From NCBI GenBank assembly GCA_046075565.1, contig JBJTQJ010000091.1:1-41701 (forward strand): a DNA stretch of 41,701 nucleotides, in the 5' to 3' direction. The stretch comes from Verrucomicrobiales bacterium (lineage in GTDB: Bacteria > Verrucomicrobiota > Verrucomicrobiia > Verrucomicrobiales > SLCJ01). The position numbers and the translations under genes were made by a program. The notes under the pieces are model-generated. The model was not told the origin of the DNA, did no database searches, and worked only from the letters and a program-made list of their open reading frames with translations. Shown here piece by piece: positions 4,061 to 41,701 of this stretch (position 1 is the stretch's first letter; each line of letters opens with the position of its first letter).

Positions 4061-4061
4061 G

Positions 4062-4346: not shown

Positions 4347-4455
4347 GGAGCCACGACAATCCTGTCGTGGTAGCGCTGGTGAAAACAATGGCAAAGCCGC
4401 TCGGAGCGGCGCACCGGCTTGCCCTTCGTTGCCACTACAGGATTGTGGTGGATCC
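4347..4455. repeat. REPIN-like element: two inverted palindromic REP units around a spacer
   Basis: GGAGCCACGACAATCCTGTCGTGG (4347-4370) and its inverted copy at 4432-4455 (21/24 match). The first unit is a perfect 8-bp hairpin and the second an imperfect one. Central hairpin GCCGCTC-G-GAGCGGC. Confidence 0.65.
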
Positions 4456-4565
4456 AAACCATCTAACGCTCAAACACCTGGGCAGAGACAAACAAGCATG
4501 CTATTTTTTCCCGCATTCGCCGGTTTCAGCAAGATCCGAAATCTTCCTTCCGTTTCCCCTTCCCC

Positions 4566-5399: not shown

Positions 5400-5445
5400 G
5401 TTTCCGCTGGATTTCCCCGGCATCGGGGGGCAGTATATTCGTCAA

Positions 5446-6357: not shown

Positions 6358-6366
6358 TTTGGATCG

Positions 6367-23949: not shown

Positions 23950-26900
23950 GAATTGGGAATTTCGACGATGGCTGCCAGTTTCGTAGAGACGAGCAGACAG
24001 CGGATGGTCTCCGGCGCGATTCCGGCGGCGGCCGAGACAGCCTGCCGGTAGGCCCGCATTTGACCGGCGTATCTTTCGACCAATTCATCCCCGCTTGCAA
24101 CCGTGTCGGTTTTGAAATCGAGGACCTCGGCACTGACGACCCGTCCTTTTTCCCGGTGAAGATGCAGGCGATCGATCACGCCACTGGTCCATACACCATC
24201 GGCGATGGTGTCGAACGGTTGTTCACGCAAAAGCACGATGTCGCGGCCGGCCCGGGTGAAAAGCCTGCGGATTTCCGACGCGGCGAAACTGGCCTCGATG
24301 AGTTTCCTCACGGATTCTTCCTTAGGCAGTTCGGGCGGGCCGTCATCGAGCCATGCGATCTTTTCAAAGGCTTCGTGGAGGGCGGTGCCAAAAGCCATGC
24401 CGCCGGAAGAATCGAGGGCAGCACCGGAGGCACCTTTCGATCCCGATGCTTTTTCGGAACTCGGGGTCTTGCGGGCCAGCCGCGGACTTGGCGGAGAAAG
24501 CACCACCGGCGGCAGCGCGGACGGGGCGGCAGATTGGATTGGAAATTCCCCGTACCATTCGGCATCGCCATGTTGCCAGAGTGTTGTCACTTCGAGGCCG
24601 GGAATCTCCATGGCCGGTTCCGCGGGGGCTTTGCCCTCAAGAGCGGCCCTCAGCCAGGAGGCATGGTTCTTTTTCGCCGTCACCGGCTCGCCTTTCTCGG
24701 TAAGCGACGGGGGCAGGATGAGGACGAGTCCGCGCGCGGCGCGGGTGAGCGCGACATACAAGGTGCAGAAACGCTCGTAGGTCATTTCCGCTTCCCACTC
24801 GTCGCGCAGTTGGGCGAGACGCTCATCAGCTTCGATGGCGGGTTTCGGAGGCGCGTCGAATAACAAATGGATGCTACCATCGGGAGCGCGTTCCTGGAGA
24901 CGGTCGAGTTTGCCGAGGTTGTCGAATCCACTGCCATCGAGGTCCGGTAGCACGACCAGATCAAATTCCAGCCCCTTGGCTTTGTGAATGGTCATGATCT
25001 GGATGGCTCCGGCTCCCGACCACTCGCGGGTCTTCCAATGGCGGAGCAGGCGCACCCAGTCGGCGAGCGGACCTCCGCGCGCGTCGAATCGCCGGGCTTC
25101 CGTTTCCCAAAGCGCGAGCCGCTCGACTTGGCTGGCATCGAGATCGTTGCGGGCGCGCAGCACGGGAAGGAGTTTGTCCAGAAGCCCGGTCGCCCCATCG
25201 GTTTGGAAAAGTCCACGTGCGGCGGACCAGATGGCATCCGGTTTCTCCGCAGCGAAGACTTCGGCGAGAGTGGCATAGAGCGGGCAATACCGCACATGCC
25301 CCCAGGCGAATTGATCGGCGGGGGTTTCCAGCCAGCGGAAAAAGTCATACAAGGCGGCCACGACCGGGCCGGCGTTCTCGATGGCGGTCTCGCTTTCCAC
25401 TTCGATCGGCCAGTCCGGGTGTTCATGGCGGAGAAAATCCGCCAGCTCCGCGGCATTTTTATTCGTTTGCACGAGGATGGCGCAGGTCAACCCGCGCTCG
25501 AGGGGTCGGGCGCGTTCGATGATCGCCGGGATGGCGAGCCATGGCAATTTGTTGGCTTTGGAGTTTCCTCCAGCCTCATCACCTGCTTCGTCCCCCGCCC
25601 CGGAGTCATCGTCGACCGGGTCGCTGGTGGCAGCGGCCACTTCAAGCACGAGGGATTCACCACGCCGGTCCGACCTCGCCGCGACATGGGGATGAAATTT
25701 CCAACGAGCGAGCGCGGCGGGTGAAAATCGTCCATTCGCAAATTCGGCCCGCAGGCCCGGACCCTCGGGATCGCAGACGAGGTTGACGAAATCCAAGACC
25801 GCCGGACTGGAGCGGAAGGAGCGATCCATGGACCATTCCGGTAGTCGCCCTTGCCAAGAGGCGGCGATTTCGTCAAAAAGCCGAGGTTCCCCGCCCCGCC
25901 AGGCGTGGATACCCTGTTTCGGGTCGCCGACGACAAAAAAGGTCCGTTGGCCACCCTCTTCCTGGGCGATTTCTTCGATCAAGCCGGCCAGCACTTTCCA
26001 TTGCAGGCGGTCGGTGTCTTGGAATTCGTCGAGCATCCAATGCTCGAACCGCTGGTCGAGACGATAGCCGATATTCTGTCCGAGCGCCGAATCGCCGATT
26101 CCGGCGTCGGCGAGCACGACGGTGAGGTCGTCGAATCCCAACCTCCCCCGACGGCGCACCTCGGAATCGTATTCCCGGTCATAACGCTGAATGACATCCC
26201 GGATGCCCCGGGTCTGGACGAGGGCAGCCTTGATTTCGGCTCCGAGCATGGCCCCGAGCAAATCGGCGGTGAGTTTGGCGGCTTCGCCGTCGAGGGAGAT
26301 GGTTTTGTTGTAGTAGGGCATTTCTGCAACCCCGGAAGCGAGGTTTTCGATCCGGGGCGAAAGACGGTCCCAGAGCGGAACTTTGAACTTCGGTTTGGCC
26401 GGCTCGTAGTCGTCCAAGAAATCCAGCAGTTTGTTCCACGATTTCGTCCAGCTCGCGTGCCCCCAATTCCGTCCTTCGGTGAGGGTCCGCAGTTTTTCCG
26501 TCCATTGCTTAAAAAGCATACTGTTGTATTCGGGCCACGGACACCCCCTTGGCCAGAGGCGTTCGTCGTTGCCCCAGGCCTCCGGGTCGCCAATTTTCAG
26601 GAACGCGCACTGGGTGGACTCGATAAACTCAATCAACTTCTCCACAAAACGATTTTCGTCCGTCCCAAAGGTCGCCCGCTTGAAGGCCTGCAGGAACTCT
26701 TCCCGCCCCGGATCATTTTCACGTAATCTACTGAAAATTTTTCCGAAGACCCGTTCACGCTCGGATTCCTTCTGCGCATCATCGAGCATCTCGAATCCAG
26801 CTAATCCCAACTCCGTGTATGCTGTGCGGGCTATTTTGCCGAAAAAAGCGTCAATGGTGCCGAGGGCGAGTCGGTCGAGGGAGCGGACGAGATTTTCCAG

Positions 26901-27224
26901 CAATTCCCGGAACCGGGCTTGGTCGAGGGGTGGGAACGTTTCGTCCGCACCGGCGAGGGCGGGCTGACCGGTCGAGGGGTCGCCGCGCAGCACGGCGAGC
27001 AGTTCCGCCGCCAGCTTTTCCGCCTTTTCCGGCGAGGAAGCTCCCTGAGCCAGACGAGCGAGGATCCGGTCGACAAACTCCCCCGCCGCCTTGCGGGTGA
27101 AAGTCAGCGCGATGATGGCGGACGGGTCCACCCCGAGAGCGAGCAAACCGAGGAAGCGGTTGGCAAGCTGGTAGGTTTTGCCCGAGCCGGCGGAGGCACG
27201 GATCATGAGGCTTTGGCGGCTCAT
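23946..27224 (-). CDS. addA: AddA/RecB-like UvrD helicase-nuclease
   Basis: Start at ATG 27224. ASAGSGKT, TFTRKAAGEF, LDEFQDT, VGDPKQGIHAWRGG, SFRSSP, MTIHKAKGLEFD, YVALTRA. C-terminal nuclease GVIDRL..LDFKT..QMRAY. Confidence 0.9.
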   Translation of the reverse strand: MSRQSLMIRASAGSGKTYQLANRFLGLLALGVDPSAIIALTFTRKAAGEFVDRILARLAQGASSPEKAEKLAAELLAVLRGDPSTGQPALAGADETFPPLDQARFRELLENLVRSLDRLALGTIDAFFGKIARTAYTELGLAGFEMLDDAQKESERERVFGKIFSRLRENDPGREEFLQAFKRATFGTDENRFVEKLIEFIESTQCAFLKIGDPEAWGNDERLWPRGCPWPEYNSMLFKQWTEKLRTLTEGRNWGHASWTKSWNKLLDFLDDYEPAKPKFKVPLWDRLSPRIENLASGVAEMPYYNKTISLDGEAAKLTADLLGAMLGAEIKAALVQTRGIRDVIQRYDREYDSEVRRRGRLGFDDLTVVLADAGIGDSALGQNIGYRLDQRFEHWMLDEFQDTDRLQWKVLAGLIEEIAQEEGGQRTFFVVGDPKQGIHAWRGGEPRLFDEIAASWQGRLPEWSMDRSFRSSPAVLDFVNLVCDPEGPGLRAEFANGRFSPAALARWKFHPHVAARSDRRGESLVLEVAAATSDPVDDDSGAGDEAGDEAGGNSKANKLPWLAIPAIIERARPLERGLTCAILVQTNKNAAELADFLRHEHPDWPIEVESETAIENAGPVVAALYDFFRWLETPADQFAWGHVRYCPLYATLAEVFAAEKPDAIWSAARGLFQTDGATGLLDKLLPVLRARNDLDASQVERLALWETEARRFDARGGPLADWVRLLRHWKTREWSGAGAIQIMTIHKAKGLEFDLVVLPDLDGSGFDNLGKLDRLQERAPDGSIHLLFDAPPKPAIEADERLAQLRDEWEAEMTYERFCTLYVALTRAARGLVLILPPSLTEKGEPVTAKKNHASWLRAALEGKAPAEPAMEIPGLEVTTLWQHGDAEWYGEFPIQSAAPSALPPVVLSPPSPRLARKTPSSEKASGSKGASGAALDSSGGMAFGTALHEAFEKIAWLDDGPPELPKEESVRKLIEASFAASEIRRLFTRAGRDIVLLREQPFDTIADGVWTSGVIDRLHLHREKGRVVSAEVLDFKTDTVASGDELVERYAGQMRAYRQAVSAAAGIAPETIRCLLVSTKLAAIVEIPNS

Positions 27225-30142
27225 GGCGACACCTCCCTTCCGGCGAACGCGGCAGGCAGCGGGTTGGCGAGGGCCATTTCCCAGCCATCGGGGGCAAGAC
27301 TTGCCCATGGTTCGGGAGGAGGCTTGCCCGGTTGGATGGTCGGGGGCCCGAAAATCCCCGCCCGCAGACGGCGCACCACTTCGGCCGACCACTCCAGGGC
27401 GCTGGCCTCGAGAGAAGCATCATAACCATCCCAGATCGAAAAACCGGTTTCCGAGGCGGCGCGGGAGAGGAGGACATAGCCGGTCTCGATGGTATCACCG
27501 GGCTCAACCCCGGGACCATTTTCCCCGGACTGGCGGAGAAAGGCGGCGTAGAGCGGGAGTTGGACATTTTTCCAACGAAGCGGCGTTCTCCCTTTTCCAC
27601 GCGGCGGCAACAATTCCCCGAGGACCGACTTCCAGTCGGCGTGGTTCTCCAGATGCTCCTTTTCCACCGACTTCACGCTCCCGGTTTTATAGTCCAGCAC
27701 CCGCCACGTCCGGCTGGCGGGATGAAAGTCGACACGGTCGAGAACCATCGAAACCTGCGCGCCACCGACCGACCACTGGGGACCTTCTTTGCCTCCAACC
27801 CGCCACTCTACCTTCTGGATTTGCCATCCCTGAGATCGATGAGCGGCTTGGGTATAGGCGAAGGCCTTCAGTCGTTCGCGCGCCGAGGCAATCTGGACAT
27901 CTACTGGAAGTGACAAACCTTTTGAATGATTGATAGTCAACCATTCATCGAGTGACCTCATGAGAAACGCGTGAATGGTTTCGCCGTGATCACAATCCCG
28001 GATCTCCTCGTCTTGGCCGAACTTGCAGAGCAACTCATGGAGAACAGAACCGAATTTTCTCGGTTCCCACTGGCGGGGATTTGCCTCGACCTCGTCCATC
28101 CCGATGATATGCCGCAGGTAGTAGCGGAATGGACACTCTAAATAGTCACGAATACGGGTCGGACTGATGCAAAACTCCTTGCCGGCGCGCGTGACTGCGG
28201 ACGCAGCTAACGAAGATCCAAAGTCCAGATGCCATGCCCCGCGGCGGATGGGTGGTCTCGGGGTCCGCGATTCATCCAGTTCGCAGAAACAATGGGCAAC
28301 TCGCTCGGGCAGCTCGATCGGCAGGCACCGGAAAAGCAGCGAGGATGGTCGGCGCGGCTCGCCGCGTCCGTCGAACTTCGGGACAAGAACCGTGACCGAG
28401 CCGTTGACTTCCCGACAACCGAGAAGGCTGCGCCAGAGGAAGGTATCGCGGGTGGCACGGCTGGCTTGGTCGCGGAGCCCGAGGCTGCGGCGGACGGAAT
28501 CCGGGAGCAGGGCATGGTCCTGGGGCGCGTCCGGTACTTTTCCCTCGACCATGCCGGCGACAACGAGGTGAGCGCCGGGCTCGTAGGGCAACTCCAACCA
28601 ACCGAGCACATCGAGCACACGCCCGGGGTCGTCGTCGGCGCGGACGATTTCAGGCAGGGTGGCGCGCCACAAAGCGGTGAGGTCGGCAGGCGAAAGTTTT
28701 GGGAAAAGCTCCTCGATTTGCCCGAGGTCGTCGACCGCCTCGGCCAGCCGCTTGAGCGCCTGACCCCCGGCTCCGTCATCATACCCTTGCCCCTTCAAGC
28801 GGTCGAAAAATTCGCCCGTCAAAGCAGCCAAACCGGCCTTTTCTACCAAATATGCTATTTCAGCGATATTCGTAAGAATATTATGCAAATCACTTTCTTC
28901 CAATAATTCGTTCTGGTAGCGATATGGGATTCCTTCCATCTTCGGCCATCTTCTGGTGGCCTCGATGGCATCGTCGAGGGTTTCGGGCAGGAACTCGACG
29001 GCGAGCAAATCCAGGGTTGTGGCGAGGCGGAAGGGATCGACGCTGAGACCGGCGGCACGGAGCCAGTCCCAAGCGGCGGGCGAGCGGAGGAATCCGGCCA
29101 CGGCGGCAAAAGGCGCGGGGCGGGAGCCGAGCAGGTCGAGCCAGTAGGACAGAGCCGGCACGAGGCCGGTCGAACCAGCACTCCGCCCCCCCGGATTGTA
29201 GAGTGGCCACCCTGCGGCGGCGAAGGCACGTTCGAGGGCGGGCAGGAGCGAATCATCCGGGCAGGCGAGGGCGATTGCTTGCGCTTCGCGTCCGGCGCAA
29301 GCCCGCAGGGCGGCGCGGGCGACATCCTCGTCGTTATTGAGGACTTGGATGGAATCGTTTCCATTCGGCAGAGGCAGGGTGGCGGCCTTCCAGCCTTCGC
29401 GTTCGGGACGTCCCCACACGTCGAAGAGTCCTTCCATGTCGGCGGGAGCATGGACAAGCACTTGCACCGGCACACCGGATTTTTCCATCCAGCGGTCGAG
29501 AGCGACGCACGCGAGCCGGACAGGATCCGGGACACCGGCCAGCACGACCCGCGCGGTATCGGCCGGAAGAGCGGTGGCGTCGAGGGCCCGGCGACGTTTG
29601 ACCAACTCGGGTGTGACCAATCCGAGTGCCGCCAAGGATTTTTCCACCCGGCGGGCGAGACGACCGATGGTCTCCCATTTCCGGGCATCGAGACTGGCGG
29701 CCGGACAACGGATCGGCACCTCCTCCGGGCGGATATCCACCTCACCGAGGGCATTCAGGGTGGGCAAGATCAGGTCGGTCCATCCGCTGCTCCATGCCCG
29801 ATCGGGGACGAAGTCATCCTGGTCCATTGGTCGCAGCGCTTCGGTTTCCGAGGCCGGGGCCGAAAGCAAAACTTGATGCCACGCGGCGCGAATAACCGCT
29901 TGCGTAGCCATGGCGTCGGATTCCTGCGGACGGAACAAAGCATCGGGGGTCAGCATGCGCGGCGAGAAGACAGCTCCCCCGCCCTGCCGGGCCAAGGCCT
30001 GGCGCAATCGGCGCGCGCTGTGGCCGGTTGGCACGACGACGAGCGTTTCGGGGAGAATTTCCCGATCCCGCAGCAACCAATCGGCAACGGCGTTGACCAA
30101 AGGGGCATCCCATCCGAGAAAATGACGCGCGGGCAATAACAT
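27221..30142 (-). CDS. addB: AddB-like inactivated helicase with PD-(D/E)xK nuclease
   Basis: VVVPTGHSARRL N-terminus; SPTRIRDYLECPFRYYL; FGSVLHELL; LDRVD..VLDYKTG; QLPLY. ATGA overlap with addA. Start at ATG 30142. Confidence 0.85.
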   Translation of the reverse strand: MLLPARHFLGWDAPLVNAVADWLLRDREILPETLVVVPTGHSARRLRQALARQGGGAVFSPRMLTPDALFRPQESDAMATQAVIRAAWHQVLLSAPASETEALRPMDQDDFVPDRAWSSGWTDLILPTLNALGEVDIRPEEVPIRCPAASLDARKWETIGRLARRVEKSLAALGLVTPELVKRRRALDATALPADTARVVLAGVPDPVRLACVALDRWMEKSGVPVQVLVHAPADMEGLFDVWGRPEREGWKAATLPLPNGNDSIQVLNNDEDVARAALRACAGREAQAIALACPDDSLLPALERAFAAAGWPLYNPGGRSAGSTGLVPALSYWLDLLGSRPAPFAAVAGFLRSPAAWDWLRAAGLSVDPFRLATTLDLLAVEFLPETLDDAIEATRRWPKMEGIPYRYQNELLEESDLHNILTNIAEIAYLVEKAGLAALTGEFFDRLKGQGYDDGAGGQALKRLAEAVDDLGQIEELFPKLSPADLTALWRATLPEIVRADDDPGRVLDVLGWLELPYEPGAHLVVAGMVEGKVPDAPQDHALLPDSVRRSLGLRDQASRATRDTFLWRSLLGCREVNGSVTVLVPKFDGRGEPRRPSSLLFRCLPIELPERVAHCFCELDESRTPRPPIRRGAWHLDFGSSLAASAVTRAGKEFCISPTRIRDYLECPFRYYLRHIIGMDEVEANPRQWEPRKFGSVLHELLCKFGQDEEIRDCDHGETIHAFLMRSLDEWLTINHSKGLSLPVDVQIASARERLKAFAYTQAAHRSQGWQIQKVEWRVGGKEGPQWSVGGAQVSMVLDRVDFHPASRTWRVLDYKTGSVKSVEKEHLENHADWKSVLGELLPPRGKGRTPLRWKNVQLPLYAAFLRQSGENGPGVEPGDTIETGYVLLSRAASETGFSIWDGYDASLEASALEWSAEVVRRLRAGIFGPPTIQPGKPPPEPWASLAPDGWEMALANPLPAAFAGREVSP

Positions 30143-30330
30143 GAGAGCAGAATGCACGGGCGGCGCGGATTGTCCATCACGGATTCAACCGATTCCGAGA
30201 ATCATTTTTGGGGTGGTCCGCGGCAAAAATTCACCACAAATGGCCTCGGAAGTTTTTTTCGCATTGCAGTCGGCCATGGTTTTTTATATGCGTTGATAGA
30301 ATCCTCGCCAAATTTTCCAAAATTTCCGTC

Positions 30331-31845: not shown

Positions 31846-31869
31846 CCAACACCGCGTCACAACTTCCCA

Positions 31870-32226
31870 ATGTCGGCCTTCCTCCCCATGCTCGCGCAGC
31901 ACGGGCATTCGCTCCAAGCCGGGGAAGATCTGGCACCTGCCGCCCAAGGAGCAGCACTTTTCATGACAGGTATCGTGGGAGTGATGCTGCTCTCCATTGC
32001 TGTGGGCGTCTTCGTGTTAGTCCGCCGAGCGCGGCGAGGCGAATCGCCAGAGCAGGCCTTGCTGCGTGAACTGCGCGCAGAGCCCAAAAAGAGGCCAGAG
32101 GAGGAAGGGAAAGATTTGGATAAGCCAACTGCCGAGAATAAGAAACCGCCAAATGGTTGGGAAAAAGATCCCGATTGGTGGAAAGACGGTTCGGCCTCTG
32201 ACAAGTCGAAACCCGAGAAGTCCTGA
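31870..32226 (+). CDS. Small single-TM hypothetical protein
   Basis: Hydrophobic helix ALFMTGIVGVMLLSIAVGVFVLV followed by RRARR and a charged tail with GWEKDPDWWK. Confidence 0.65.
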   Translation: MSAFLPMLAQHGHSLQAGEDLAPAAQGAALFMTGIVGVMLLSIAVGVFVLVRRARRGESPEQALLRELRAEPKKRPEEEGKDLDKPTAENKKPPNGWEKDPDWWKDGSASDKSKPEKS

Positions 32227-32367
32227 GGAGTATCGCAAATCAAGCCAAAAACGAACAAACGTTGTTGGATTGAGAAAAATTCAATCTTTTCGGGTTTCCG
32301 CCGTTGGATGTTCAACAGAGGACTCCCGACGCGTCCGAACTTTTTTCCTTATTCCGAAAGATTTTTC

Positions 32368-32396
32368 TGGCAAAACGCACGTTCGGTATTTACGAT
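32368..32396 (+). promoter_or_regulatory. Putative sigma70-type promoter of cassette 1
   Basis: TGGCAA-17 nt-TACGAT in an AT-rich intergenic region, 87 nt upstream of ATG 32484. Confidence 0.45.
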
Positions 32397-32418
32397 GTAT
32401 ATAAGTTAGGTCGACTTA

Positions 32419-32451
32419 CCTCCAGAAGCCCTACAGAAGCCCTCCAGACCC
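32419..32451 (+). repeat. 11-bp tandem repeat x3 in the 5' leader of cassette 1
   Basis: CCTCCAGAAGC CCTACAGAAGC CCTCCAGACCC. Confidence 0.6.
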
Positions 32452-32483
32452 GACGCAGCCCCCGAACCCAATCACCCTCTCCG

Positions 32484-35400
32484 ATGCGTAACCCAATCCG
32501 TAGATCACGCCTCTTTCGTTTCTCCAAGCAGAAGCATGGCTTTGCCCTCATTGCCACCCTGAGCGTCACCGCTCTCATCACCCTTCTGGTGCTTGCTCTT
32601 TTGTCGCTTTCGACCCAAGCGCGGCGCACGAACTCGCAATGGAGAAACGCGACCATGGCTCAGGCGAATGCCCGGCTTTCCTTGATGCTGGCGATGGCCG
32701 AACTGCAAAAACAAATGGGGCCGGACACCCGGATCTCTGCGCCTGCGGACGCCGGCACGCTGTCAACTGGCGGACAACCGCGCTGGACAGCGATTTATGA
32801 CGCGTGGAGACGCCCGGCCACTACGGGCACAGCGGAAAACCCGGCCACCAGAAATCCCGTGTTCCGGGGCTGGTTGGCGTCCGGTGCCAATTCCTCCAGG
32901 GGCGGTCCCCCGGGAAATGGCAGCCAAACTTTGCTCGTGAGTTCCTCCAGTGTGGGCGCGGGCGCCCGTCCGGAAGATGAGGTCCGGGTGCCGGCTCTGG
33001 CCTACACCGCGGGAAGGGAGCGCGGGCAGCTTGCCTGGTGGACTTCCGACGAATCCATCAAGGCGAAAATCAACGCGGGTGCCGCCGCCGACAGTTCCAC
33101 ATCGCCAACAAGCCCAATCTCGAGGGCGCAATCACCTCCCTATACCGGAACCAAGGCGATTCCGGCGTTGAGCGCATTTGAGTGGCGCACGAACCAACGT
33201 GGCATGTCCGTTACCACGGGGGAAGTCAATCTGGCGGCAGGTCTCGGCAGTGCGGGCCTTGGCAGGGTCAGCCATAATATCACCTTGTATTCGGCGGGAG
33301 TGCTCAGCGATGTGCGCGGTGGCCACCTCAAGCGGGATCTTTCCAATCTTTTGTCCCGTCCGATTGCGGAGTTGGTAAACAAGCCACTCTACCTGCAGGA
33401 TGGTCGCATCAACTATTTCCAGATCAACTCCACCACAGGTGTGGTGACCAACAACACCTGGGTTCCAAACTTCAACCTCAGCCAAGCTCCACCACCCTGG
33501 GGCATCAACCTCGAAGAGCTTCATCTGTTCCACGAAATCCACCGCGAGGTGGACTGGAGCGGCAACAAACCACGTCTGGTGAATAAGGGCAACCCATCGG
33601 ACGTGCTCAACGATCGATTCTTCATTTACCGGAAACCGATTCTGGAGTCGGTAAGCCAGGTTCTTTCCTTCGTCGCCACGCCCGAAGCGGGAACCAATCC
33701 GGTCACCTACAAACTCGAGGGCATGCTAAACCCCATTGTCGTCCTTTCGAACCCGAACGACATCCAAGTCGTCTGGCAAAGCGGACTGCCGTTCCGCGTG
33801 GAGACCGAGGGCTTCCCCTACCGGCCCAAATGGAACATCGCGAGGCCTGGCCGAACACCTGCACTTGCAACCCTTACCCACACGGTGGATGAGATCAACA
33901 GCGCTTTCTTCCGCTCCGTGATCAACGGCGGCTTCACCCTTGAAGCAGGAGAGGCGGCCGTATTTGGCGCCTCCAGCAGTGATACACAAGCCAAACAGGT
34001 CAACCTGACGCGCGGTTTCAGGCTGGGCAGGGGGGTTCTTATCGACGACGGGGACTGGGACTCGGACAACAACGTCGGTCCCTATGACGGCCTCCGTGCA
34101 ACCCGCCTCCGGCTGACGGACAAATTGGATCTGACGATGGTGCAAAATGATGAAGGCCTCGGGGCAACACCCAGTGGATGGATCCAAAACCATGTGAAAA
34201 TCGATTCGACTGCCGTGGGATTCCATCGCTACGGGGGCGGAGGAGGCAGCCGGTTTAGCGACGGCCCCGGCAGCCTCTATATGCCCGCATCGATCCGGCC
34301 ATCGCAGACCCCGGAGATCCGGAATTTCACCGATCTCAATAACCCAAAACCCGTGCTCATGGTGACAAGCATGACCAATGTGGAGCGCAGCCGTACCGCT
34401 CTTTTGCCTCCGAACGCTCTCCCCTCGCGTCCTTACATCCTCCAAGAGCCAGGGAGTTCGAGACTGACAGCTATTTCGAATAACGCAGTAACCAACTTGC
34501 TACCGACGATGCAGAACGCACAGCTCGTCACCATCGCGGAGCCGATGGACTTCACGCCCGGAAATGACCGCACCATGCCAGCCGGAGCCGGTGGGTTGAA
34601 CATTTATCACGGTGGAGCGAGGGAAGTGGCCTTGGGCGGCAACCTCAACGTAATCAAGCGCCGCATTCCACTGTCAGCGCCCCTTTCCTTGGGCGCATTC
34701 GAGAACGCCATCGCATCTGGTTTCCACTCACCTTTCCGATCCCAGAATACCAGAACTGGGGCATACAATGTGGTTAGCCCGATGCTTCACGGCACTCCCG
34801 AGGTTCTGCCAACTTCGCCGGCCAAGAGAACACTGGGAACCGGACCGGAACCGGACGCGAGCAAAGTGACGATGTCGAGATCCATCGGCAACTCATGGAC
34901 CAATCCGTTCCTCAGTTCCGACCGCATCCAAGATGGCACCTACCACGACCAATCCTGGCTGGCCAACACCGCGCTCTGGGACAGCTGGTTCCTCTCCGGT
35001 ATCGTGCGACCGGGACCTTCCGGTGCCTGGAACAGCGACAGCCGCAGCCAGAGGCAACAGTTCCGCGAACTCGCCGAACGCACCGCCACCTTGCGCAACG
35101 CCCGCATCGTCTTCCATCCCCAGAAGTCGCTCGACCAAGCCCTAAACGAACTTTTCAATGGCGACAACCTCAAACCGGAAGCGATCGATCGGCTCACCAA
35201 ATACCTGCTGGTCGATGGGGCATTCAATGTGAATTCCACCTCCGAGGCGGCATGGAAAGCTTTCCTTACCAGCGTGAGGGATCATGAACTGATCGACGCC
35301 AACGGCTCCATCTCGAAAAAGACCCATCCTTTCGGAACACTCGGATATGCCGTGAACGCCGCGACTTCCGGCAACGAAGGCGATTGGGCCGGATTCCGTG

Positions 35401-35960
35401 ATCTTTCTGATACCGAATTGGACGCGCTTGCCAAGGCCATTGTCGTCGAGGTGAAAGCACGCGGCCCCTTCCTGAGTATGGCCGACTTCGTGAACCGCCG
35501 CCCCAATAGCACCGATCCCGTGCAGCGCGCCCTCGGTGCCTTGCAGGTCGCAATCGACAAGTCGGGCCTCAACAACCGGTTTAATTCGCCGGGCAGGTCG
35601 CTGGCCCCCGCGGACGTCCCGATGTTTGCCGGAAGAGACACGCTGAGCAGCGAACCGGTACCGGCCCGGGCCGTCGGCGCCGCCGGATATTTGAGCCAGG
35701 GTGCCCTGCTGACCGCGTTCGGCTCCCAAGTCACGGTGCGCGGCGACACCTTCGTCATCCGCACCTACGGAGATACCCGCGACCCGTCGGACAGAATCCA
35801 GGCCAGGGCATGGTGCGAGGCGGTCGTGCAACGTCTGCCCGATTTTGTCGATTCCACCAATCCTGCGGAAGCATCCGCCGGTCTCTCGGCCGCCAATAAT
35901 ACATTCGGCAGGAAGTTCAGCATCGTGTCATTCCGCTGGTTAAGCCCGGATGAAATCTGA
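32484..35960 (+). CDS. Giant PilX/GspK-type prepilin-like protein (Verru_Chthon cassette protein A-like), copy 1
   Basis: Basic leader, then class III cleavage site KHG|FALIATLSVTALITLLVLALLSLS with no Glu+5. AQANARLSLMLA..ELQ; FNVNSTSEAAWKAFL; RGPFLSMADFVNR; RGDTFVIRTYG; AWCEAVVQR; FRWLSPDEI. Start at ATG 32484. Confidence 0.8.
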   Translation: MRNPIRRSRLFRFSKQKHGFALIATLSVTALITLLVLALLSLSTQARRTNSQWRNATMAQANARLSLMLAMAELQKQMGPDTRISAPADAGTLSTGGQPRWTAIYDAWRRPATTGTAENPATRNPVFRGWLASGANSSRGGPPGNGSQTLLVSSSSVGAGARPEDEVRVPALAYTAGRERGQLAWWTSDESIKAKINAGAAADSSTSPTSPISRAQSPPYTGTKAIPALSAFEWRTNQRGMSVTTGEVNLAAGLGSAGLGRVSHNITLYSAGVLSDVRGGHLKRDLSNLLSRPIAELVNKPLYLQDGRINYFQINSTTGVVTNNTWVPNFNLSQAPPPWGINLEELHLFHEIHREVDWSGNKPRLVNKGNPSDVLNDRFFIYRKPILESVSQVLSFVATPEAGTNPVTYKLEGMLNPIVVLSNPNDIQVVWQSGLPFRVETEGFPYRPKWNIARPGRTPALATLTHTVDEINSAFFRSVINGGFTLEAGEAAVFGASSSDTQAKQVNLTRGFRLGRGVLIDDGDWDSDNNVGPYDGLRATRLRLTDKLDLTMVQNDEGLGATPSGWIQNHVKIDSTAVGFHRYGGGGGSRFSDGPGSLYMPASIRPSQTPEIRNFTDLNNPKPVLMVTSMTNVERSRTALLPPNALPSRPYILQEPGSSRLTAISNNAVTNLLPTMQNAQLVTIAEPMDFTPGNDRTMPAGAGGLNIYHGGAREVALGGNLNVIKRRIPLSAPLSLGAFENAIASGFHSPFRSQNTRTGAYNVVSPMLHGTPEVLPTSPAKRTLGTGPEPDASKVTMSRSIGNSWTNPFLSSDRIQDGTYHDQSWLANTALWDSWFLSGIVRPGPSGAWNSDSRSQRQQFRELAERTATLRNARIVFHPQKSLDQALNELFNGDNLKPEAIDRLTKYLLVDGAFNVNSTSEAAWKAFLTSVRDHELIDANGSISKKTHPFGTLGYAVNAATSGNEGDWAGFRDLSDTELDALAKAIVVEVKARGPFLSMADFVNRRPNSTDPVQRALGALQVAIDKSGLNNRFNSPGRSLAPADVPMFAGRDTLSSEPVPARAVGAAGYLSQGALLTAFGSQVTVRGDTFVIRTYGDTRDPSDRIQARAWCEAVVQRLPDFVDSTNPAEASAGLSAANNTFGRKFSIVSFRWLSPDEI

Positions 35961-35995
35961 ACGAACCGGGAATCGTTTCATCGCTTTAGAAGACC

Positions 35996-36712
35996 ATGTT
36001 CCTCCGTTACACCACATCGATTGCCGTTGCCATTCTTTCGTTGCTTTTCCTGCCGGCAAGGAGCCAGGCCCAGGAGCAACCAACTCCGGAGAAAAAGGAA
36101 CAAGGGGCGATGATTCGCATCCTTTGTGTTCAGAGCCTCAGCGGTGACAAGGACGAAACGATCACCCTCGCGCAAAAAGCCGAGGACGGTAAATGGACGG
36201 AATTCGGCGACCTCGAATTGCGCTCACCCTTCATCACCAATTGGCTCAGGGTGCCCGCTGGAGTGAATCATGTGGTCAGGAAGCAGGGCGGAGAGTTCGT
36301 CTCTCTCGCGTCTTTCACGGTCCTTCCCGAGATGAAAGGCGCCATCCTGATCCTGATTCCGAACATGAAGGAGAGGAAATACCGTTTGCAGTTGATTGAT
36401 CCCGCGAAACTTGAATTCCAGAAAGGCAAGGCCCTCGTCGTGAATTACTCGAAAATCCCCGCCCTAGTGAACATGGGCAATAAAACGACGACCGTGGCAC
36501 CCGGACAACAGTATGTCGAGACCATCAAGGCTGACAAGGACGGCATGCACCGCATGGTCATCGGTCACCTCGATAAAGACAAGAAGATCATTCCCTGCTA
36601 CGACCGGTTCGTTTCTTCCGATCCCGAAACCCGGAAATTTGTCCTCCTGTTCCCCGATCCCGATACTGGATTGCGAGCGATGACCCTTTCCGAATTCGAC
36701 ACCAATCAGTGA
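35996..36712 (+). CDS. Secreted hypothetical companion protein of cassette 1 (paralog a)
   Basis: Sec signal ending RSQA-Q; beta-rich; shares RxxC, ELRxPxxxNWL, DPxKLxF, CYDR, PDP..LR..LSE with the next gene. Confidence 0.85.
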   Translation: MFLRYTTSIAVAILSLLFLPARSQAQEQPTPEKKEQGAMIRILCVQSLSGDKDETITLAQKAEDGKWTEFGDLELRSPFITNWLRVPAGVNHVVRKQGGEFVSLASFTVLPEMKGAILILIPNMKERKYRLQLIDPAKLEFQKGKALVVNYSKIPALVNMGNKTTTVAPGQQYVETIKADKDGMHRMVIGHLDKDKKIIPCYDRFVSSDPETRKFVLLFPDPDTGLRAMTLSEFDTNQ

Positions 36713-36746
36713 AGTTCCCGTCTCCCTGACCACAATTGATAGCGCC

Positions 36747-37448
36747 ATGAATTCAAAAATAATCCATTTGTCCTGCCATGCGTTCGTGACAGCCGTCTTC
36801 ATCTGCCTCGGCAGCCAAGCCGCCCACGCCCAGACGACCGAATCCACGCCCATGGTGCGCCTCATTTGCGCTGGCGGCCTGGGTGAAGCTCAGGAAGTTG
36901 TGCTCGCCACCAAAAGCGAGAATGCGGGATGGAAAGAGGTGGCAAAGACGGAACTTCGGGATCCGATGGTTAGCAACTGGCTGCCCTCGCAGTACGGCGA
37001 GATCCACCTCCTCCGGCAAAAGAATGGCAAAGCCGAGTCCTTCGGCCATTTCACCCACGCGGAGGGGATCCGTCGCGCGGTGGTTATCCTGACCGCGAAT
37101 GAGGAAGCGAAAATCTGCCGCGCCGTCGTGCTCGACCCCGAAAAACTGGGTTTCAAAGAGGGCACTACGGTCATCATCAATGCCAGCAAGATGACCGGCA
37201 CCGCAACCCTTGGCACGGAAACCGTCACCGTCGAGGCCGGCAAAAATCTTTTGGCCAAGCCCGCACCGGACGAGACCGGGGGCTACCGGGTGATGGTGGA
37301 GTCCCCCGGCGCACAAGGCACAAAACAGGTTTGTTACGATCGTTATACAACCGGCATCCCGAACGCGCGCAACATCATCGTCCTGCTTCCCGATCCGAAT
37401 GTCACTCTCCGGGTCACCAGCCTCTCGGAATATGGTCCGTTTGAGTGA
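36747..37448 (+). CDS. Secreted hypothetical companion protein of cassette 1 (paralog b)
   Basis: Sec signal ending AHA-Q; collinear homology with 35996..36712. Confidence 0.85.
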   Translation: MNSKIIHLSCHAFVTAVFICLGSQAAHAQTTESTPMVRLICAGGLGEAQEVVLATKSENAGWKEVAKTELRDPMVSNWLPSQYGEIHLLRQKNGKAESFGHFTHAEGIRRAVVILTANEEAKICRAVVLDPEKLGFKEGTTVIINASKMTGTATLGTETVTVEAGKNLLAKPAPDETGGYRVMVESPGAQGTKQVCYDRYTTGIPNARNIIVLLPDPNVTLRVTSLSEYGPFE

Positions 37449-37632
37449 CGCCCATCTCCCGTCGTAGGCGGAGCGTTGCAGGGCTGTTCGGGAACTGATT
37501 CCATCCCCGTGCCCTTGTTTGGGGGGCAGCATCAAAGGCCATTCGGAGACCTCAAGGCCAAAAACGCCCAAGCTAGACCGGAGCTTTGACATTTTTGTCT
37601 CGTCATTTTTTCATCCGCATGAGAGAATGTGA

Positions 37633-37661
37633 TTGTAAGATCCGCTGGCGGTGTATACGAT
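37633..37661 (+). promoter_or_regulatory. Putative sigma70-type promoter of cassette 2
   Basis: TTGTAA-17 nt-TACGAT, 94 nt upstream of ATG 37756; same -10 context as cassette 1. Confidence 0.5.
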
Positions 37662-37755
37662 GCGGTTGCCGAGGACCTCTTTTTCGGAAAAGCGCCATTT
37701 TGGTATCTTCCCACCTTCCCTCCCTTCCCCATCCAGACCACTCTCCAAGCTGGCC

Positions 37756-40700
37756 ATGAAAAAGCGCAAACATCTCTCCGATCCATGCCCGGCGAAGCCT
37801 TGCAAAAATGGCTTCGCCTTGATCGCGACACTTTCCATTACCGCCCTCATTACCCTTCTGGTGCTCGGCTTGCTCTCGCTCTCGACCCAGACCGCAAGGA
37901 CCCATGCGCAGTGGAAATCAACTGCCATGGCGCAGGCCAACGCCCGGCTTTCGTTGATGCTGGCCATGGGCGAGTTGCAGCGTTTGGCAGGTGACGACCG
38001 GCGCGTGACCGCTCCCGCCGATTTGAAAATGGCCGCCGGCATCACCCATTCCAGCCGCTACTGGACCGGTGTTTACTCGAATGCCGCGGGAAACAACGCC
38101 TCCACGGAAATTTACACACGCACTCCCCAGTCCAGATTCGAGGGCTGGCTCGTCAGCGGAGCCAAACAATCCCTGACCAATCCCGACAGCACGACGGTGC
38201 CTCTTACCAATGCCATCCAATTGGTGGGACCAGGCAGCGCCGGCGACTCAACTGCCCAGTATGTCACGGCACCGACCCTTGATGTCCGGGCCGCAACAGG
38301 CGGTCAGACCTCGCGGATCAGTTGGTGGGTTGGCGACGAAGGCACCAAGGCGCGCGGCAACCTGCCCTCCGGTGATCCCCCGGGATTGGCCGCCACTGAA
38401 CTCACTCTCGGCAAACGCGGCGCCGGTTGGGAAACCGTGGCCGGGTTGGAAACATTCCCGGAAATCGGCGGAGCGAATGAGCCATTCCTGCGCAGGGCAT
38501 TGAGTGTGCCAAACCTGGCTCTCGCAGTGCCGGGAACCGAAGCCTCCCTTCGCCGTTACTTCCATGCTCTCACCAACGACTCCCGGACTCTTCTCACCAA
38601 TACCCTCACCGGTGGTTTGCGCATGGACCTGACTCCCTATGTGGAAAATGGTTTCCCCTCGACCCCTGCCAATTCCTTGCTGCCGAACCCTCCCGTAGCC
38701 GGGAGGAATATTATCCCCGCAACCGTGGCCCCGAATATTAAAGGGCCGATCTGGAGTCAATTGCGGGCGCTCCGTAGCCTGCGACCCACCAGCGGGGATA
38801 CACTGACGGTCAGTCTTGGAAACGGTGCCGACCAGCCGCTGGTCGCACCCCTGCTGCTTGACGTTCGCGTGCTCATGGGCGCGAAATTGGCGATGGTCCC
38901 CGGCAGCACCACTGAATATCGGATCCACCCGTGCGGAAAGATTGCCGTTTCGCTCGCCAATCCTTATCCCTATCGCCTCCGGTGGAGACAGAATCTCGAT
39001 GTGGAAGTCTTCCTCGTGGGCAGCGCCGGAAGGCCCTCCTGCATTTGGGAAGCGGCTGGCCAGCCGAGATACCTGCCGCAAAGTGCCGGAGACGCGTCGG
39101 TCTTCGGCAACGCCGTTTTCACCATCCCCGCAGGAGAACTGCCTCCGGGCGAAGCGCAGTCCTATACGGTGAGCGGCCGGGTTTTGCGTGCGGCCGCGAG
39201 TTCGTTGAATCCGGTGACCGTGCCGCTCGGTCCATTTCTGGCCCAAGGGCCGTCAGACTTCCGGAAATGCGTCGAACTCGAGCATACCGCGGTCAACACC
39301 GGTTCGAAGTCGCTCGATGTGCGTGAAGCACAAACCTCCTCAGTTCTCGGGATCGAAATGCGGCTCGGAGGCTCCTCCAGGGGTTCCGGAATTCTCCGCC
39401 GGGTCAACGCATTGGAATTGGACAACGCCTTCTTCTCCCAAGTTCGCCGGGGCGTTAACGCGGACATCGCATCCCGGATGACGGATCCATTCCCGCTGCA
39501 TCTCTACGCATTCCAAATCAGCCAGCCGGGCGCGGACTACGGCTCCCTGCTTCCGAACGCCAGTCAACTCGGAGTGCGCAATTCCACCCTGCGTACCTTC
39601 GCCGATTTCAATTTAAGGGCTGCGTATTTCCCCCGGCCGATTGCCGGATACCTGACCCCTCCCTATTTCATGGAAAGCTCGGATACCCTGGCGAGCCTGC
39701 CCTTTACCGAACCCGGTGGCGACACGGGGACCGCTTTCACCCGCAATCTCGCGCTGTCGCCGCTCGCCTGGGGGCATTCCCCGGTTTCCGGCCCCCGCAA
39801 AACCATTCTCTTCGATGTGCCCAATCACCTCGTATCCTTGGCTCAATTTCAGCATGCCGATCTGACCGCCAACGACGGCGTGTTATCGGTCGCCGTCCAG
39901 CCGGGCAATGCCCTTGGGAACTCCTATGCCCATCCCCTCGTGAAGCGCGGCCTTAATTCCGAAGTTCGTTACGATTACACCGTGCTGTCAACTCGTGCCG
40001 CCGCGGCCAGCGCCTTTCGCTATTACGATATTTCGTATCTGCTCAACGCCTCGCTCTGGGATTCCTATTTCCTCTCCACCGTGCCAACCACCGGGATCAC
40101 CACACCGCTCAATTCCCGCATCGTTGATCTCAAGGGAGGTTCATCGCCCGACCGTTTGCGCGATCCCCTGCGCTCCGCTTCCCAACTGGCTGCGGAAGGT
40201 GGATTGAATGTGAATTCCACCAGCAAGGAAGCATGGAAAGCTTTCCTCGCCTCCAATCGGAAGCTGAGGCACCCTGCCGACATCACCGCGGCCGAGGGCA
40301 TGATGTTCCCCCGCCATTTGTCGTTGCAAGGCAGCAGGGCTCTATTACCCAAACCGAGCGGAAATGCCGACGACTCGCTCAACGGCTTCCGGCGCATCAA
40401 TGATCAACAACTGGATGCTCTCGCCGAAGAGATCACGCGTCAGGTCCGGTTACGCGGCCCGTTCCTTTCGTTAGCCCACTTTGTGAATCGCTCTCTGGTC
40501 GATCTCACGAGCGACACGAACAACCTCGGCCGCAGCGGCGCGCTCCAGAGTGCAATCGACAATAGCGGATTGAACATGGCTCCCGGCCGCACCGACTCCG
40601 GCTTCGCCAATCTCACCCCCGCAAACAATCTTGTCCAGATGCAAGCACGGCCCGATGGCACTCCAGAGGCCGATATGGTGGGAGGTAGGGCAACCCCGCC

Positions 40701-41172
40701 GGGTCCCAACAACGACCCGGCCGATTCCGGCCCGCCTGTCTGGGCATCCGCATCAAGGGACCTCAACCCCGGCAACACCGGCAGCATGCTCGCTGATCGC
40801 GAGATGCTCACGAATCCCACCTACCGCCCCGAACAAGGCTTCCGCTCCACCGGCATTCCCGGATGGTTGACGCAAGCGGACATTCTGCAAGTCATCGGTC
40901 CGGCGATCAGCGCCCGTTCTGATACCTTCCGTCTTCGCGCCAGCAGCGAAACCTTGGATGCCAATGGAAGGGTTGTCGCCCGCTCATGGTGCGAGGCCAT
41001 CGTGCAACGTGTTCCGGAATTCCTCGATTCGACAAACCTCCCGGAAACCCCTACAATCATTTTAAGAAACGGCAGCCTGATCCAGAATCCGGATATCACG
41101 CCCGTGAACCGCCGCTATGGTCGTCGCTTCGAAGTGATCTCCTTCCGCTGGCTCCATCCCGATGAAATCTGA
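37756..41172 (+). CDS. Giant PilX/GspK-type prepilin-like protein (Verru_Chthon cassette protein A-like), copy 2
   Basis: KNG|FALIATLSITALITLLVLGLLSLS; AQANARLSLMLAMGELQ; LNVNSTSKEAWKAFL; RGPFLSLAHFVNR; RSDTFRLRA; SWCEAIVQR; FRWLHPDEI. Start at ATG 37756. Confidence 0.8.
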   Translation: MKKRKHLSDPCPAKPCKNGFALIATLSITALITLLVLGLLSLSTQTARTHAQWKSTAMAQANARLSLMLAMGELQRLAGDDRRVTAPADLKMAAGITHSSRYWTGVYSNAAGNNASTEIYTRTPQSRFEGWLVSGAKQSLTNPDSTTVPLTNAIQLVGPGSAGDSTAQYVTAPTLDVRAATGGQTSRISWWVGDEGTKARGNLPSGDPPGLAATELTLGKRGAGWETVAGLETFPEIGGANEPFLRRALSVPNLALAVPGTEASLRRYFHALTNDSRTLLTNTLTGGLRMDLTPYVENGFPSTPANSLLPNPPVAGRNIIPATVAPNIKGPIWSQLRALRSLRPTSGDTLTVSLGNGADQPLVAPLLLDVRVLMGAKLAMVPGSTTEYRIHPCGKIAVSLANPYPYRLRWRQNLDVEVFLVGSAGRPSCIWEAAGQPRYLPQSAGDASVFGNAVFTIPAGELPPGEAQSYTVSGRVLRAAASSLNPVTVPLGPFLAQGPSDFRKCVELEHTAVNTGSKSLDVREAQTSSVLGIEMRLGGSSRGSGILRRVNALELDNAFFSQVRRGVNADIASRMTDPFPLHLYAFQISQPGADYGSLLPNASQLGVRNSTLRTFADFNLRAAYFPRPIAGYLTPPYFMESSDTLASLPFTEPGGDTGTAFTRNLALSPLAWGHSPVSGPRKTILFDVPNHLVSLAQFQHADLTANDGVLSVAVQPGNALGNSYAHPLVKRGLNSEVRYDYTVLSTRAAAASAFRYYDISYLLNASLWDSYFLSTVPTTGITTPLNSRIVDLKGGSSPDRLRDPLRSASQLAAEGGLNVNSTSKEAWKAFLASNRKLRHPADITAAEGMMFPRHLSLQGSRALLPKPSGNADDSLNGFRRINDQQLDALAEEITRQVRLRGPFLSLAHFVNRSLVDLTSDTNNLGRSGALQSAIDNSGLNMAPGRTDSGFANLTPANNLVQMQARPDGTPEADMVGGRATPPGPNNDPADSGPPVWASASRDLNPGNTGSMLADREMLTNPTYRPEQGFRSTGIPGWLTQADILQVIGPAISARSDTFRLRASSETLDANGRVVARSWCEAIVQRVPEFLDSTNLPETPTIILRNGSLIQNPDITPVNRRYGRRFEVISFRWLHPDEI

Positions 41173-41701
41173 TCTCCGCGCCGTCATCCTCTTCTTCCTT
41201 GCCTGCTCTCCTCTGCCCGCCCAGAATGGCGGCGATGTGCCGCAGGTTTCACTGACCATCGATTTTGTCGCCTGGGGTGAGGATCTGCACGGACTCGAGG
41301 TGCGCTCGGAAAAAAAGTCCGATCCCGTCAGCGCCCTCGCCTTCCGCTTCTCGAAACCCTATCGTTACTCCGGCCCGCAAGTTCTGTCCCTTGGTTTCGG
41401 TCAAGTCTCCGATGAAGTGCAGGCCAATCTCGCCGAACTGCAGGCAGAGCAACGGAAAAGAGCCCGCGAAGATGGCATTGATCTCCCCGAACCGATTGCC
41501 CCGAAACCGGGGGTGCCCGATCTCAAGGGAGAAATCCCCGAATCGCTCGCATTCGCCCGGAAGAACAATCCCGGTTTGGCGGCGCTTGTCATGCTGCCCA
41601 CCAATTCCAAGAGGGTAACCATCCTTCTCTCGCCCGGACCCCAGCGCAGCCTGAACCCGCGGCTGTTTGATGATGATCCATCGCGGCACCCCGGCGGCAC
41701 G
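41162..41701 (+). CDS. Secreted hypothetical companion protein of cassette 2 (partial, runs off the window, absent from the ORF track)
   Basis: ATG 41162 overlaps the upstream gene's last 11 nt. Reads MKSDLRAVILFFLACSPLPAQNGGDVPQVSLTIDFVAWGEDLHGLEV...ALAFRFSKPYRYSGPQVL..., open to the window end, with a signal peptide. Confidence 0.8.
   Translation, partial: MKSDLRAVILFFLACSPLPAQNGGDVPQVSLTIDFVAWGEDLHGLEVRSEKKSDPVSALAFRFSKPYRYSGPQVLSLGFGQVSDEVQANLAELQAEQRKRAREDGIDLPEPIAPKPGVPDLKGEIPESLAFARKNNPGLAALVMLPTNSKRVTILLSPGPQRSLNPRLFDDDPSRHPGGT

Follow-up and report, generated by a model that had tools for sequence, protein, structure and literature searches.

We analysed a 41,701-nt window of Verrucomicrobiales DNA, which is the entire contig C91 (JBJTQJ010000091.1) of a 3.9-Mb genome in 129 contigs. 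The closest named relatives are freshwater assemblies labeled "Akkermansiaceae bacterium", Luteolibacter and Haloferula, and the window DNA is matched by freshwater metagenome runs. Positions 32484-41701 hold two co-oriented units on the plus strand, each consisting of a giant pilin-like gene and the signal-peptide open reading frame or frames (ORFs) that follow it, which we call companions. This layout bears out an initial annotation of the locus, which described a unit repeated twice in tandem. Unit 1 comprises giant 1 (32484-35960, 1158 aa), companion 1 (35996-36712, 238 aa) and companion 2 (36747-37448, 233 aa), with 35 nt between the giant and companion 1 and 34 nt between the two companions. 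The ORF that contains giant 1 is open from 32304 to 35960, and its likely start is the ATG at 32484 (MRNPIRR...). Companion 1 has a Sec-type signal peptide (...ARSQA|QEQP) followed by a short polar linker and the body of the protein, and companion 2, its paralogue, also begins with a signal peptide. Unit 2 starts 307 nt further on and consists of giant 2 (37756-41172, 1138 aa; likely start ATG 37756 within ORF 37651-41172) and the 5' part of companion 3 (41162-41701; 180 codons, including a signal peptide), which overlaps the giant by 11 nt. As the initial annotation had it, the second unit is cut by the window end: companion 3 is still open at position 41701, and its remainder lies on the minus strand of contig C71 (22549-23163).

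Prepilin-type ends and a paralogue-specific middle

Both giants begin with a basic leader of 19 residues whose last residue is Gly19 (nt 32538-32540 in giant 1 and nt 37810-37812 in giant 2). The junction reads G|FALIATLS(V/I)TALITLLVL..., with Phe at +1 and Ala at +5, and is followed by about 25 hydrophobic residues. In this genome's small pilins the corresponding sequence is GF(T/S)L(I/V)E, with Glu at +5. Among 64 related giants with an intact N-terminus, the +5 residue was Val in 38, Ala in 11, Ile in 9, Thr in 3, Leu in 2 and Ser in 1, and in no case Glu. The class III cleavage site without Glu5 that had been proposed for the two giants, G|FALIAT in both, is accordingly a property of their relatives as well. 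Both giants carry Gly at -1, a hydrophobic helix and no Glu5, the traits of the GspK/PilX class.

When compared by BLASTP, giants 1 and 2 aligned at the N-terminal end (35% identity over 344 aa, E 3e-27) and at the C-terminal end (31% over 456 aa, E 2e-44), and their middles could not be aligned. Comparison of eight full-length paralogues from this genome shows conservation in giant 1 at residues 1-100, 251-300, 801-850 and 901-1158. Residues 301-800 mostly show a pairwise identity below 0.2, with short motifs (a WNPYN-like strand and PGE) as exceptions. The orthologues of giant 1 (n = 67) show conservation of 0.4-0.68 over the whole length. Because the middle is conserved among orthologues and not among paralogues, it is paralogue-specific and under constraint, rather than hypervariable. 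The C-terminal module has the pattern FNVNSTS...RGPFLS.xDFVNRR...DTFxIRxYG...ARAWCEAxVQR...FRWL..EI. Homologues of giant 1 number more than 1300, the full-length orthologues are 42-64% identical, and the giants range from 1138 to 1333 aa.

Companion family, pairing and age

Companions 1 and 2 share 31% identity (E 4e-43), and BLASTP linked companion 3 to neither of them. However, an independent family profile from which companion 3 and its C71 part had been excluded recovered both, with E values of 3.9e-6 for companion 3 and 4.8e-12 for the C71 part. The companions of the ten cassettes in this genome are signal-peptide ORFs of 230-270 aa that can be aligned over their whole length, and leave-one-out profiles recovered every omitted member (E 8e-25 to 2e-5). 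No ORF of the genome that is unlinked to a giant scored below 1e-3 with the companion profiles. The genes behind the giants had been described as non-pilin secreted proteins; three signal-peptide ORFs do follow, but they are members of one family and not unrelated proteins. The family has 4785 representatives (E <=1e-3) among 1.84 billion cluster representatives, and all 84 orthologues of companion 1 are annotated as "hypothetical".

Neither the three window companions nor ten family representatives matched any Pfam family, and PF14344 (DUF4397) and PF11182 (AlgF) were among those without a match. An Atlas model of a companion (pTM 0.74) resembled a DUF4397 cluster with a TM score of 0.64, and AlgF clusters gave a feature score of 0.80; we take this modeled likeness as a lead and not as membership. 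The body of companion 1 is probably all-beta. Mature companions open with a polar stretch of 5-17 residues, rich in Pro, Glu and Lys, ahead of the first strand, and hhalign detected no internal duplication in the companion. P0235, a 1094-aa protein with a signal peptide from another source, has a companion-family domain at its C-terminal end (residues 888-1092), preceded by about 880 residues with no known family. We considered this protein as a giant-companion fusion and rejected it because the N-terminal part is not giant-like; its domain layout indicates that the companion fold is also fused to other secreted modules.

The genome contains ten giant genes, two on C91 and one each on C84, C90, C108, C110, C117, C128, C55 and C88, the last of which is cut by the contig start. 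A companion lies directly after the giant in all ten cassettes. The C108 giant (C108:71865-75604, L016) runs through two overlapping frames (71865-72935 and 72617-75604) with a frameshift near 72900, which could mark a pseudogene or stem from misassembly. The companion behind it (75623-76396) is intact; an extracytoplasmic function (ECF) sigma/FecR gene pair lies divergently upstream.

A scan of one genome per species yielded at least 599 giant loci, and the best 80 of these, referred to below as the related loci, come from Akkermansiaceae, Luteolibacter, Haloferula, Roseibacillus, Opitutaceae, Rariglobus, Coraliomargarita and Ruficoccus. A companion match was found in 71 of the 80. The C-terminal end could be recognised in 49 giants, and in 40 of these a companion starts between -12 and +122 nt from the giant stop codon, with a median of 19 nt. 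Companions occur as tandem pairs in seven loci, including those of giant 1 orthologues (L024 and L025), which indicates that the layout of unit 1 is ancestral. Second cassettes were present within the fetched flanks of five loci, and one family member has two arrays of three. At another locus (L065:2-7003) one giant (2-3106) is followed directly by a second (3164-7003), and only the second has a companion after it, unlike the arrangement in the window.

In a sample of 151 genomes of the phylum, giants were found in 39, with 1-16 matches each. Companions were present in 30 of these 39 genomes and in none of the 112 giant-free genomes, and copy numbers of the two families were correlated (r = 0.96). 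The distances among 40 giants also paralleled those among their companions (Mantel r = 0.876), a value that was reached by none of 2000 permutations. The genome-wide association anticipated between the two families is therefore present, and the parallel divergence indicates that each giant has been passed on together with its companion.

The same comparisons bear on the age of the repertoire. At the DNA level, giants 1 and 2 share only stretches of 74-83% identity and of no more than 82 nt, and there are no meaningful inverted repeats. The closest in-genome paralogues of each lie on other contigs and are at most 36% identical. In contrast, orthologues at 55-68% identity were found elsewhere for five of eight tested paralogues; for giant 2 and the C84 and C128 giants, none above 40% was present among the 80 kept loci. 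Because orthologues in other genomes are so much closer than the paralogues at home, the giant set is old and stable, with paralogues that predate the genera, and not shuffled. The initial annotation had called the cassettes interchangeable; if this means that they were shuffled, or diversified recently, the description is not supported.

Possible kinship to cap pilins and a candidate shared core

No Pfam family was assigned to the giants at E 0.1. The best NCBIfam match of both is TIGR02600 (Verru_Chthon cassette A), the family to which the initial annotation had tied them. However, giant 1 scored 30.4 bits over model positions 1-59 and giant 2 scored 24.4 bits over positions 1-62, out of 1296 positions and against a cut-off of 332.3 bits, so that the likeness is confined to the first 60 or so residues and kinship beyond these is not supported. 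A search of the genome with TIGR02600 gave seven matches on six contigs, all at the N-terminus and at 15.6-30.8 bits. At E 1e-20 the model had no member in 81 genomes, though this search matched nowhere and so proves little. The EPS_HpsA model (NF038301; 1503 positions, cut-off 400 bits) did not match the giants, nor anything in the whole genome, where control genomes were silent too. PilX_N (Pfam; compare COG4726) gave no match to the giants at E 0.1, and some giant homologues are named "Tfp pilus assembly protein PilX" by JGI.

Profile comparison was more informative at the N-terminus. The first 55 columns of the giant profile aligned with a verrucomicrobial GspK profile in hhalign at 85.8% (E 5.4e-6). 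A second line of evidence comes from contig C25 of the same genome, which carries a complete minor-pilin operon in H/I/J/K order (C25:128813-133827, L022). Its first three genes encode small Glu5 pilins of the GspH/D-like, GspI/PilV/B-like and GspJ/C-like types, and the fourth encodes a 994-aa protein that lacks Glu5 and aligns with the C-terminal 158 columns of the giants at 96.1% (E 3.2e-9). This alignment places the giant family at the K/X position of a minor-pilin set, and the C25 operon may represent its ancestral context. We also considered the nearby ORF C25:134512-135111 as a companion of this operon and rejected it, because leave-one-out E values were 0.0013-0.2 and the broad profile missed it. 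An Atlas look-up of the giant, for which no model of giant 1 was available and which serves as a lead only, returned T2SSK clusters (0.79) and an HHH_3 cluster (0.91).

We then asked where the remaining parts of a filament are encoded. Assembly genes lie on other contigs, as the initial annotation had supposed: a prepilin peptidase (Peptidase_A24 gene at C119:90544-91197), three GspE/PilB-type and four PilT-like ATPases, two platform genes and three secretins. The ATPase and platform genes are on C119 and C38 and the secretins on C115, C90 and C52. On C115, the type II secretion system (T2SS) includes a GspK-like gene of ordinary size (a 335-aa ORF; NF037980 E 1.6e-18, below cut-off). Genes of the B, C and D type had been reported missing from cassette 1, and indeed no small Glu5 pilin gene is present on C91, and such an ORF lies within 6 kb of a giant in only two of the 80 related loci. 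A search for PilY1 (PF05567) found no match in the genome and none in control genomes either, and so gives no evidence.

Three consecutive small Glu5 pilin genes with no large or cap gene after them are located at C67:638-3226 (L108). Their best matches are Verru_Chthon D (41 bits, cut-off 70), B (weak) and C (41 bits, cut-off 256; also HpsC). The C-like pilin of this trio is single-copy in 34 of the 151 phylum genomes. Trio and giants are both present in 31 genomes and both absent from 109, with giants only in eight and the trio only in three; thus, the trio accompanies 31 of 39 giant-bearing genomes and 3 of 112 giant-free ones. In the other genomes inspected (loci L114, L115, L118, L121 and L122) the trio stands alone among housekeeping genes, with five pilin genes in one case, no cap or assembly genes beside it, and at a distance from the giants. 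The C67-type trio is therefore a candidate for the shared core of the orphan giants. The shared filament posited at the outset thereby gains a concrete candidate, although its link to the giants is statistical only.

Proposed role, alternatives and surroundings

The reading we prefer, and to which we give about an even chance, is that the giants serve a single common type IV filament as alternative cap pilins that lack Glu5, and that each has a secreted partner of its own. Each unit would be a two-gene operon. The giant would be made as a prepilin and cut after Gly19 by the prepilin peptidase, leaving the hydrophobic N-terminal helix. Because a pilin without Glu5 could sit only at the distal end of the filament, the giant would be restricted to that end as a cap, like GspK and PilX. 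The conserved parts at its N- and C-terminal ends would together make up a pilin-like base docked on the core minor pilins, with the paralogue-specific middle of about 500 residues as the exposed working part. Since there are ten giants but a single capless trio, the most likely arrangement would be one core and one assembly machine, capped by any of the ten. The companion would cross the inner membrane via Sec and join its own giant in the periplasm, and would then either travel on the tip, acting as co-adhesin or adaptor, or leave as cargo, like CofJ with CofB and TcpF with TcpB. The function of such a tip would probably be the capture of particular surfaces or glycans.

Several results weigh against this proposal. 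At E 0.1 the giants matched no GspK, T2SSK, PilX_N or N_methyl/TIGR02532 model; TIGR02532 and the PF07963 N_methyl model, both trained on GFxxxE, recover the small pilins of C67, C25, L121 and L122. The C-terminal giant profile gave no significant alignment with the GspK profile (hhalign E 0.38). Within the C-terminal domains, sub-threshold matches to PF03934 T2SSK (5 of 56, best E 0.033) and HHH_6 (12 of 56) fall on one helix-hairpin-helix (HhH)-like segment; PF03934 also matches the HhH of a Tex-like protein (L104) and is not GspK-specific, so we gave the T2SSK hits no weight for GspK kinship. For the same reason, T2SSK matches over 41 phylum genomes were abandoned as a GspK reference set after the one inspected, L104, proved to be this Tex-like HhH. 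Profile searches against solved structures returned nothing significant, the best being a PilA N-terminus (E 1.4) and the HhH of DNA polymerase III alpha (E 0.73). By sequence, then, the apparent kinship with GspK is limited to the N-terminal helix and an HhH-like motif. With respect to pairing, nine of the 80 related loci have no companion match, and in seven of these unrelated ORFs directly follow the giant; nine of the 39 giant-bearing genomes likewise have no companion match at E 1e-8. Eight of the 39 have no trio match, with one protein as the query, and trio and giants are never adjacent. Finally, the co-occurrence and pairing counts are not phylogenetically independent and are inflated by common ancestry.

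Some of these points would be accommodated if the giants were membrane-anchored periplasmic proteins, with the prepilin-like N-terminus, cut or uncut, as the anchor, that form a periplasmic complex with the companion, for example for binding or handling imported polymers. A role of this kind has been suspected for the many DUF1559/H-X9-DG pilin-like proteins in PVC bacteria. Such proteins would need no pilin-domain match beyond the helix and no assembly genes, which are absent beside every cassette, and the look-alikes of the companions, DUF4397 by structure and AlgF by features, include a periplasmic adaptor family, although only as a lead. We regard this as possible, if rather unlikely, because the loss of Glu5 in 64 of 64 relatives that keep Gly-1 and Phe+1 is the signature of a filament cap and is needless for an anchor. 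Two further arguments against it are that the giants are homologous to the last of four genes in a complete minor-pilin operon and that they co-occur with a capless trio. A cargo-specific secretion adaptor is decidedly unlikely in our estimate. Here the giant would cap a short T2SS-like endopilus solely to recognise its own companion and push it out, and the companion would be the real effector (a binding protein, an enzyme-free adhesin or a signalling factor), set free into the medium. The strict one-to-one pairing and the co-divergence favour such a system, as does the tight coupling of the genes (the 19-nt median and the overlap in unit 2); the genome has a T2SS with secretins, and the polar N-terminal stretch of the companions recalls TcpF's disordered N-terminal segment, which is reported as an export signal bound by TcpB (PMC10120004). 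However, an orthologue-conserved domain of 500 residues exceeds what docking a 215-aa cargo would require, nine of 80 loci offer no companion match, and the T2SS already owns a GspK on C115.

Two further possibilities concern the origin of the cassettes. The giants could represent a true Verru_Chthon cassette whose B, C and D genes were lost, in line with TIGR02600 being the best NCBIfam match of both and with the D/B/C-like trio elsewhere in the genome. The scores of the two giants over 59-62 of 1296 positions, roughly 300 bits under the cut-off, and those of the seven own-genome matches make this very improbable; the trio proteins are also below the D, B and C cut-offs, and the 81 genomes had no member, with the reservation already made about that search. 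A recombining or phase-variable library, in which silent and expressed copies swap their middles in the manner of pilE/pilS, was suggested by the tandem arrangement of copies whose ends are conserved and whose middle varies, and by the recurrence of tandem arrays in relatives. Both copies in the window are full-length with their own starts, however, and the low DNA identity of the conserved ends, the lack of meaningful inverted repeats, the closeness of orthologues relative to paralogues and the fact that neighbouring giants are not each other's closest paralogues leave such a library barely credible.

Several known systems resemble the proposed cap pilins in part. Like the giants in the reading proposed here, the cyanobacterial proteins PilX1/2/3 (PilXCom) and the HpsA-like PilXEPS are Glu5-less terminal minor pilins with a bulky inserted domain, and several of them too are orphan paralogues, with genes apart from those of the core minor pilins. 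Several such paralogues cap one filament, any one of them serving; the enlarged pilin is proposed to replace PilY1 as cap and adhesin (PLoS Genet 2026, PMC13759059). Yet no sequence kinship was detected (NF038301 had no match), and the giants differ in size (1138-1333 aa), number (up to 16 per genome) and their HhH-like C-terminal module. Nearly all of them also have a dedicated secreted companion, and none is mentioned for cyanobacterial PilX in the available text of PMC13759059. The GspK/PilX caps share the Glu5-less prepilin-type site, the N-terminal helix profile (86%, E 5e-6) and a distal HhH-like segment, and, as for GspK, a giant homologue is the fourth gene in an H/I/J/K-ordered operon. 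In contrast, the giants are three to four times larger, match no model and have an unaligned C-terminal profile; they are orphans with a non-pilin partner outside the minor-pilin operon, in a genome that also has an ordinary GspK-like gene.

The pairing itself recalls CofB-CofJ of CFA/III in enterotoxigenic Escherichia coli and TcpB-TcpF of the toxin-coregulated pilus in Vibrio cholerae, where a large tip minor pilin and a Sec-exported non-pilin protein are encoded in one operon. According to PMC6048534 and PMC10120004, secreted CofJ and TcpF bind the tip minor pilins CofB and TcpB through a flexible N-terminal segment and in a cognate-specific manner; binding between giant and companion may be similar. 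These type IVb systems have one such pair in each pilus operon, with the complete machine encoded next to it, and they have no sequence similarity to the module described here. Verru_Chthon cassette A occurs in the same phylum and is alike in size class (about 1300 aa) and prepilin-like N-terminus, but matches at only 59-62 of 1296 positions, and the giants have a companion instead of adjacent B, C and D genes. The modular type IV pilins, represented by Streptococcus sanguinis PilB, likewise graft a functional module onto a pilin moiety; as reported, however, PilB joins a known von Willebrand A module to a Glu5 pilin in a pil locus (bioRxiv 10.1101/2021.01.27.428410), whereas the module of the giants has no known family and its pilin moiety lacks Glu5. 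Our literature search found no paper on the giant or companion family. The two genes form a real, widespread and unannotated module of freshwater and gut Verrucomicrobia, and the dedicated secreted partner is a new element beside the known enlarged, Glu5-less cap minor pilins.

In lakes, oceans, soil and the gut, Verrucomicrobiota rank among the major degraders of complex glycans. To our knowledge they have no SusC/SusD-type uptake systems. We entertained the idea that giant-companion pairs are the substrate-specific capture heads of pilus-based polymer fishing. One retractile filament, primed by the trio, would be tipped by one of up to 16 giants according to the sugar-responsive regulator that is active. 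The giant's variable middle and the companion would jointly bind one class of glycan or particle and haul it in for "selfish" uptake, in a role like that of SusC/SusD pairs in Bacteroidota. This extension is speculative and, taken as a whole, unlikely. Some neighbours of the cassettes are in keeping with it: two GH20 genes, a GH29 gene and a SASA esterase gene at C84, two sulfatase genes after the C88 cassette, a DUF5060/Collagen_bind_2 glycosidase-like gene after the companion 3 remainder on C71, the ECF sigma/FecR pair before C108, and a GntR-sugar-binding regulator before C128. Among 28 related loci, about 12 have LacI/GntR/AraC-type regulators or carbohydrate-active enzymes within the nearest two ORFs on each side, and others lie beside rpoBC, rho or ligA. 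Against it, the 3.9-Mb genome has about 58 sulfatase genes, so that one sulfatase-flanked cassette in ten is unremarkable and the adjacency may be due to chance. Pili-like fibres are reported to bind dextran in Planctomycetes (PMC5394234). For Akkermansiaceae, a type IV-like pilus has been proposed in glycan attachment, and the MUL2 pilus locus of Akkermansia consists of different genes, amuc_1099-1102 (PMC13174399).

The analysis defines an unannotated family of Glu5-less giants, a companion family and a candidate shared capless trio, and thereby turns the vague idea that pili may bind glycans into a small, testable gene set. If the cap-pilin reading is correct, the principle of one filament machine with several enlarged PilX-type caps would extend to a second phylum, and the partner protein would be new to that principle.

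The initial annotation also placed a promoter ahead of each giant, which our analysis did not confirm. A sigma-70 scan of the window scored three sites against 2.9 expected, which is chance level, with none in either upstream gap, and a terminator scan scored none against 10.5 expected. The region 5' of giant 1 (32316-32483) lies between a minus-strand ORF with no family (31857-32315) and the ATG at 32484, and in the inter-unit gap (37449-37755) no promoter-like or terminator-like site was scored. Apart from one 8-mer beside the start codon, no 8-mer is common to the sequences upstream of 70 giants, and an alignment of upstream regions revealed no common promoter or operator. From its size alone, the 307-nt gap suggests that unit 2 may have a separate transcript. 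No RNA run was listed for the window stretch, and the four DNA runs listed are contigs from one study. A loose likeness of 32 nt, TTTTTC.GG.AAA.CGC......GGTAT.T, is present 5' of both giants (32362-32393 and 37679-37710). It surfaced as a spurious "protein" match before the true starts and is not kept upstream of one orthologue.

At the right edge of the window, the final 314 nt of C91 dovetail with the end of C71 at 95.5% identity. Two 129-nt run contigs with 12 differences form a strain bubble at 41513-41641, and one run contig extends beyond the window end. The dovetail and the two-variant bubble indicate that the contig break is an assembly effect of strain variation, and that the metagenome-assembled genome mixes at least two close strains at the C91/C71 junction. 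Up to position 32315 the contig carries ordinary genes, which include GH95, oxidoreductases, a pullulanase-like gene, TrmO, BipA, an S8 peptidase, WbsX, AddAB-like nucleases and GNAT. The AddA/AddB-like pair (23946-30157, minus strand) consists of a UvrD-like plus PD-(D/E)XK gene (1148 aa) and a PD-(D/E)XK gene (978 aa), and the two ORFs overlap by about 170 nt when taken from the first upstream GTG.

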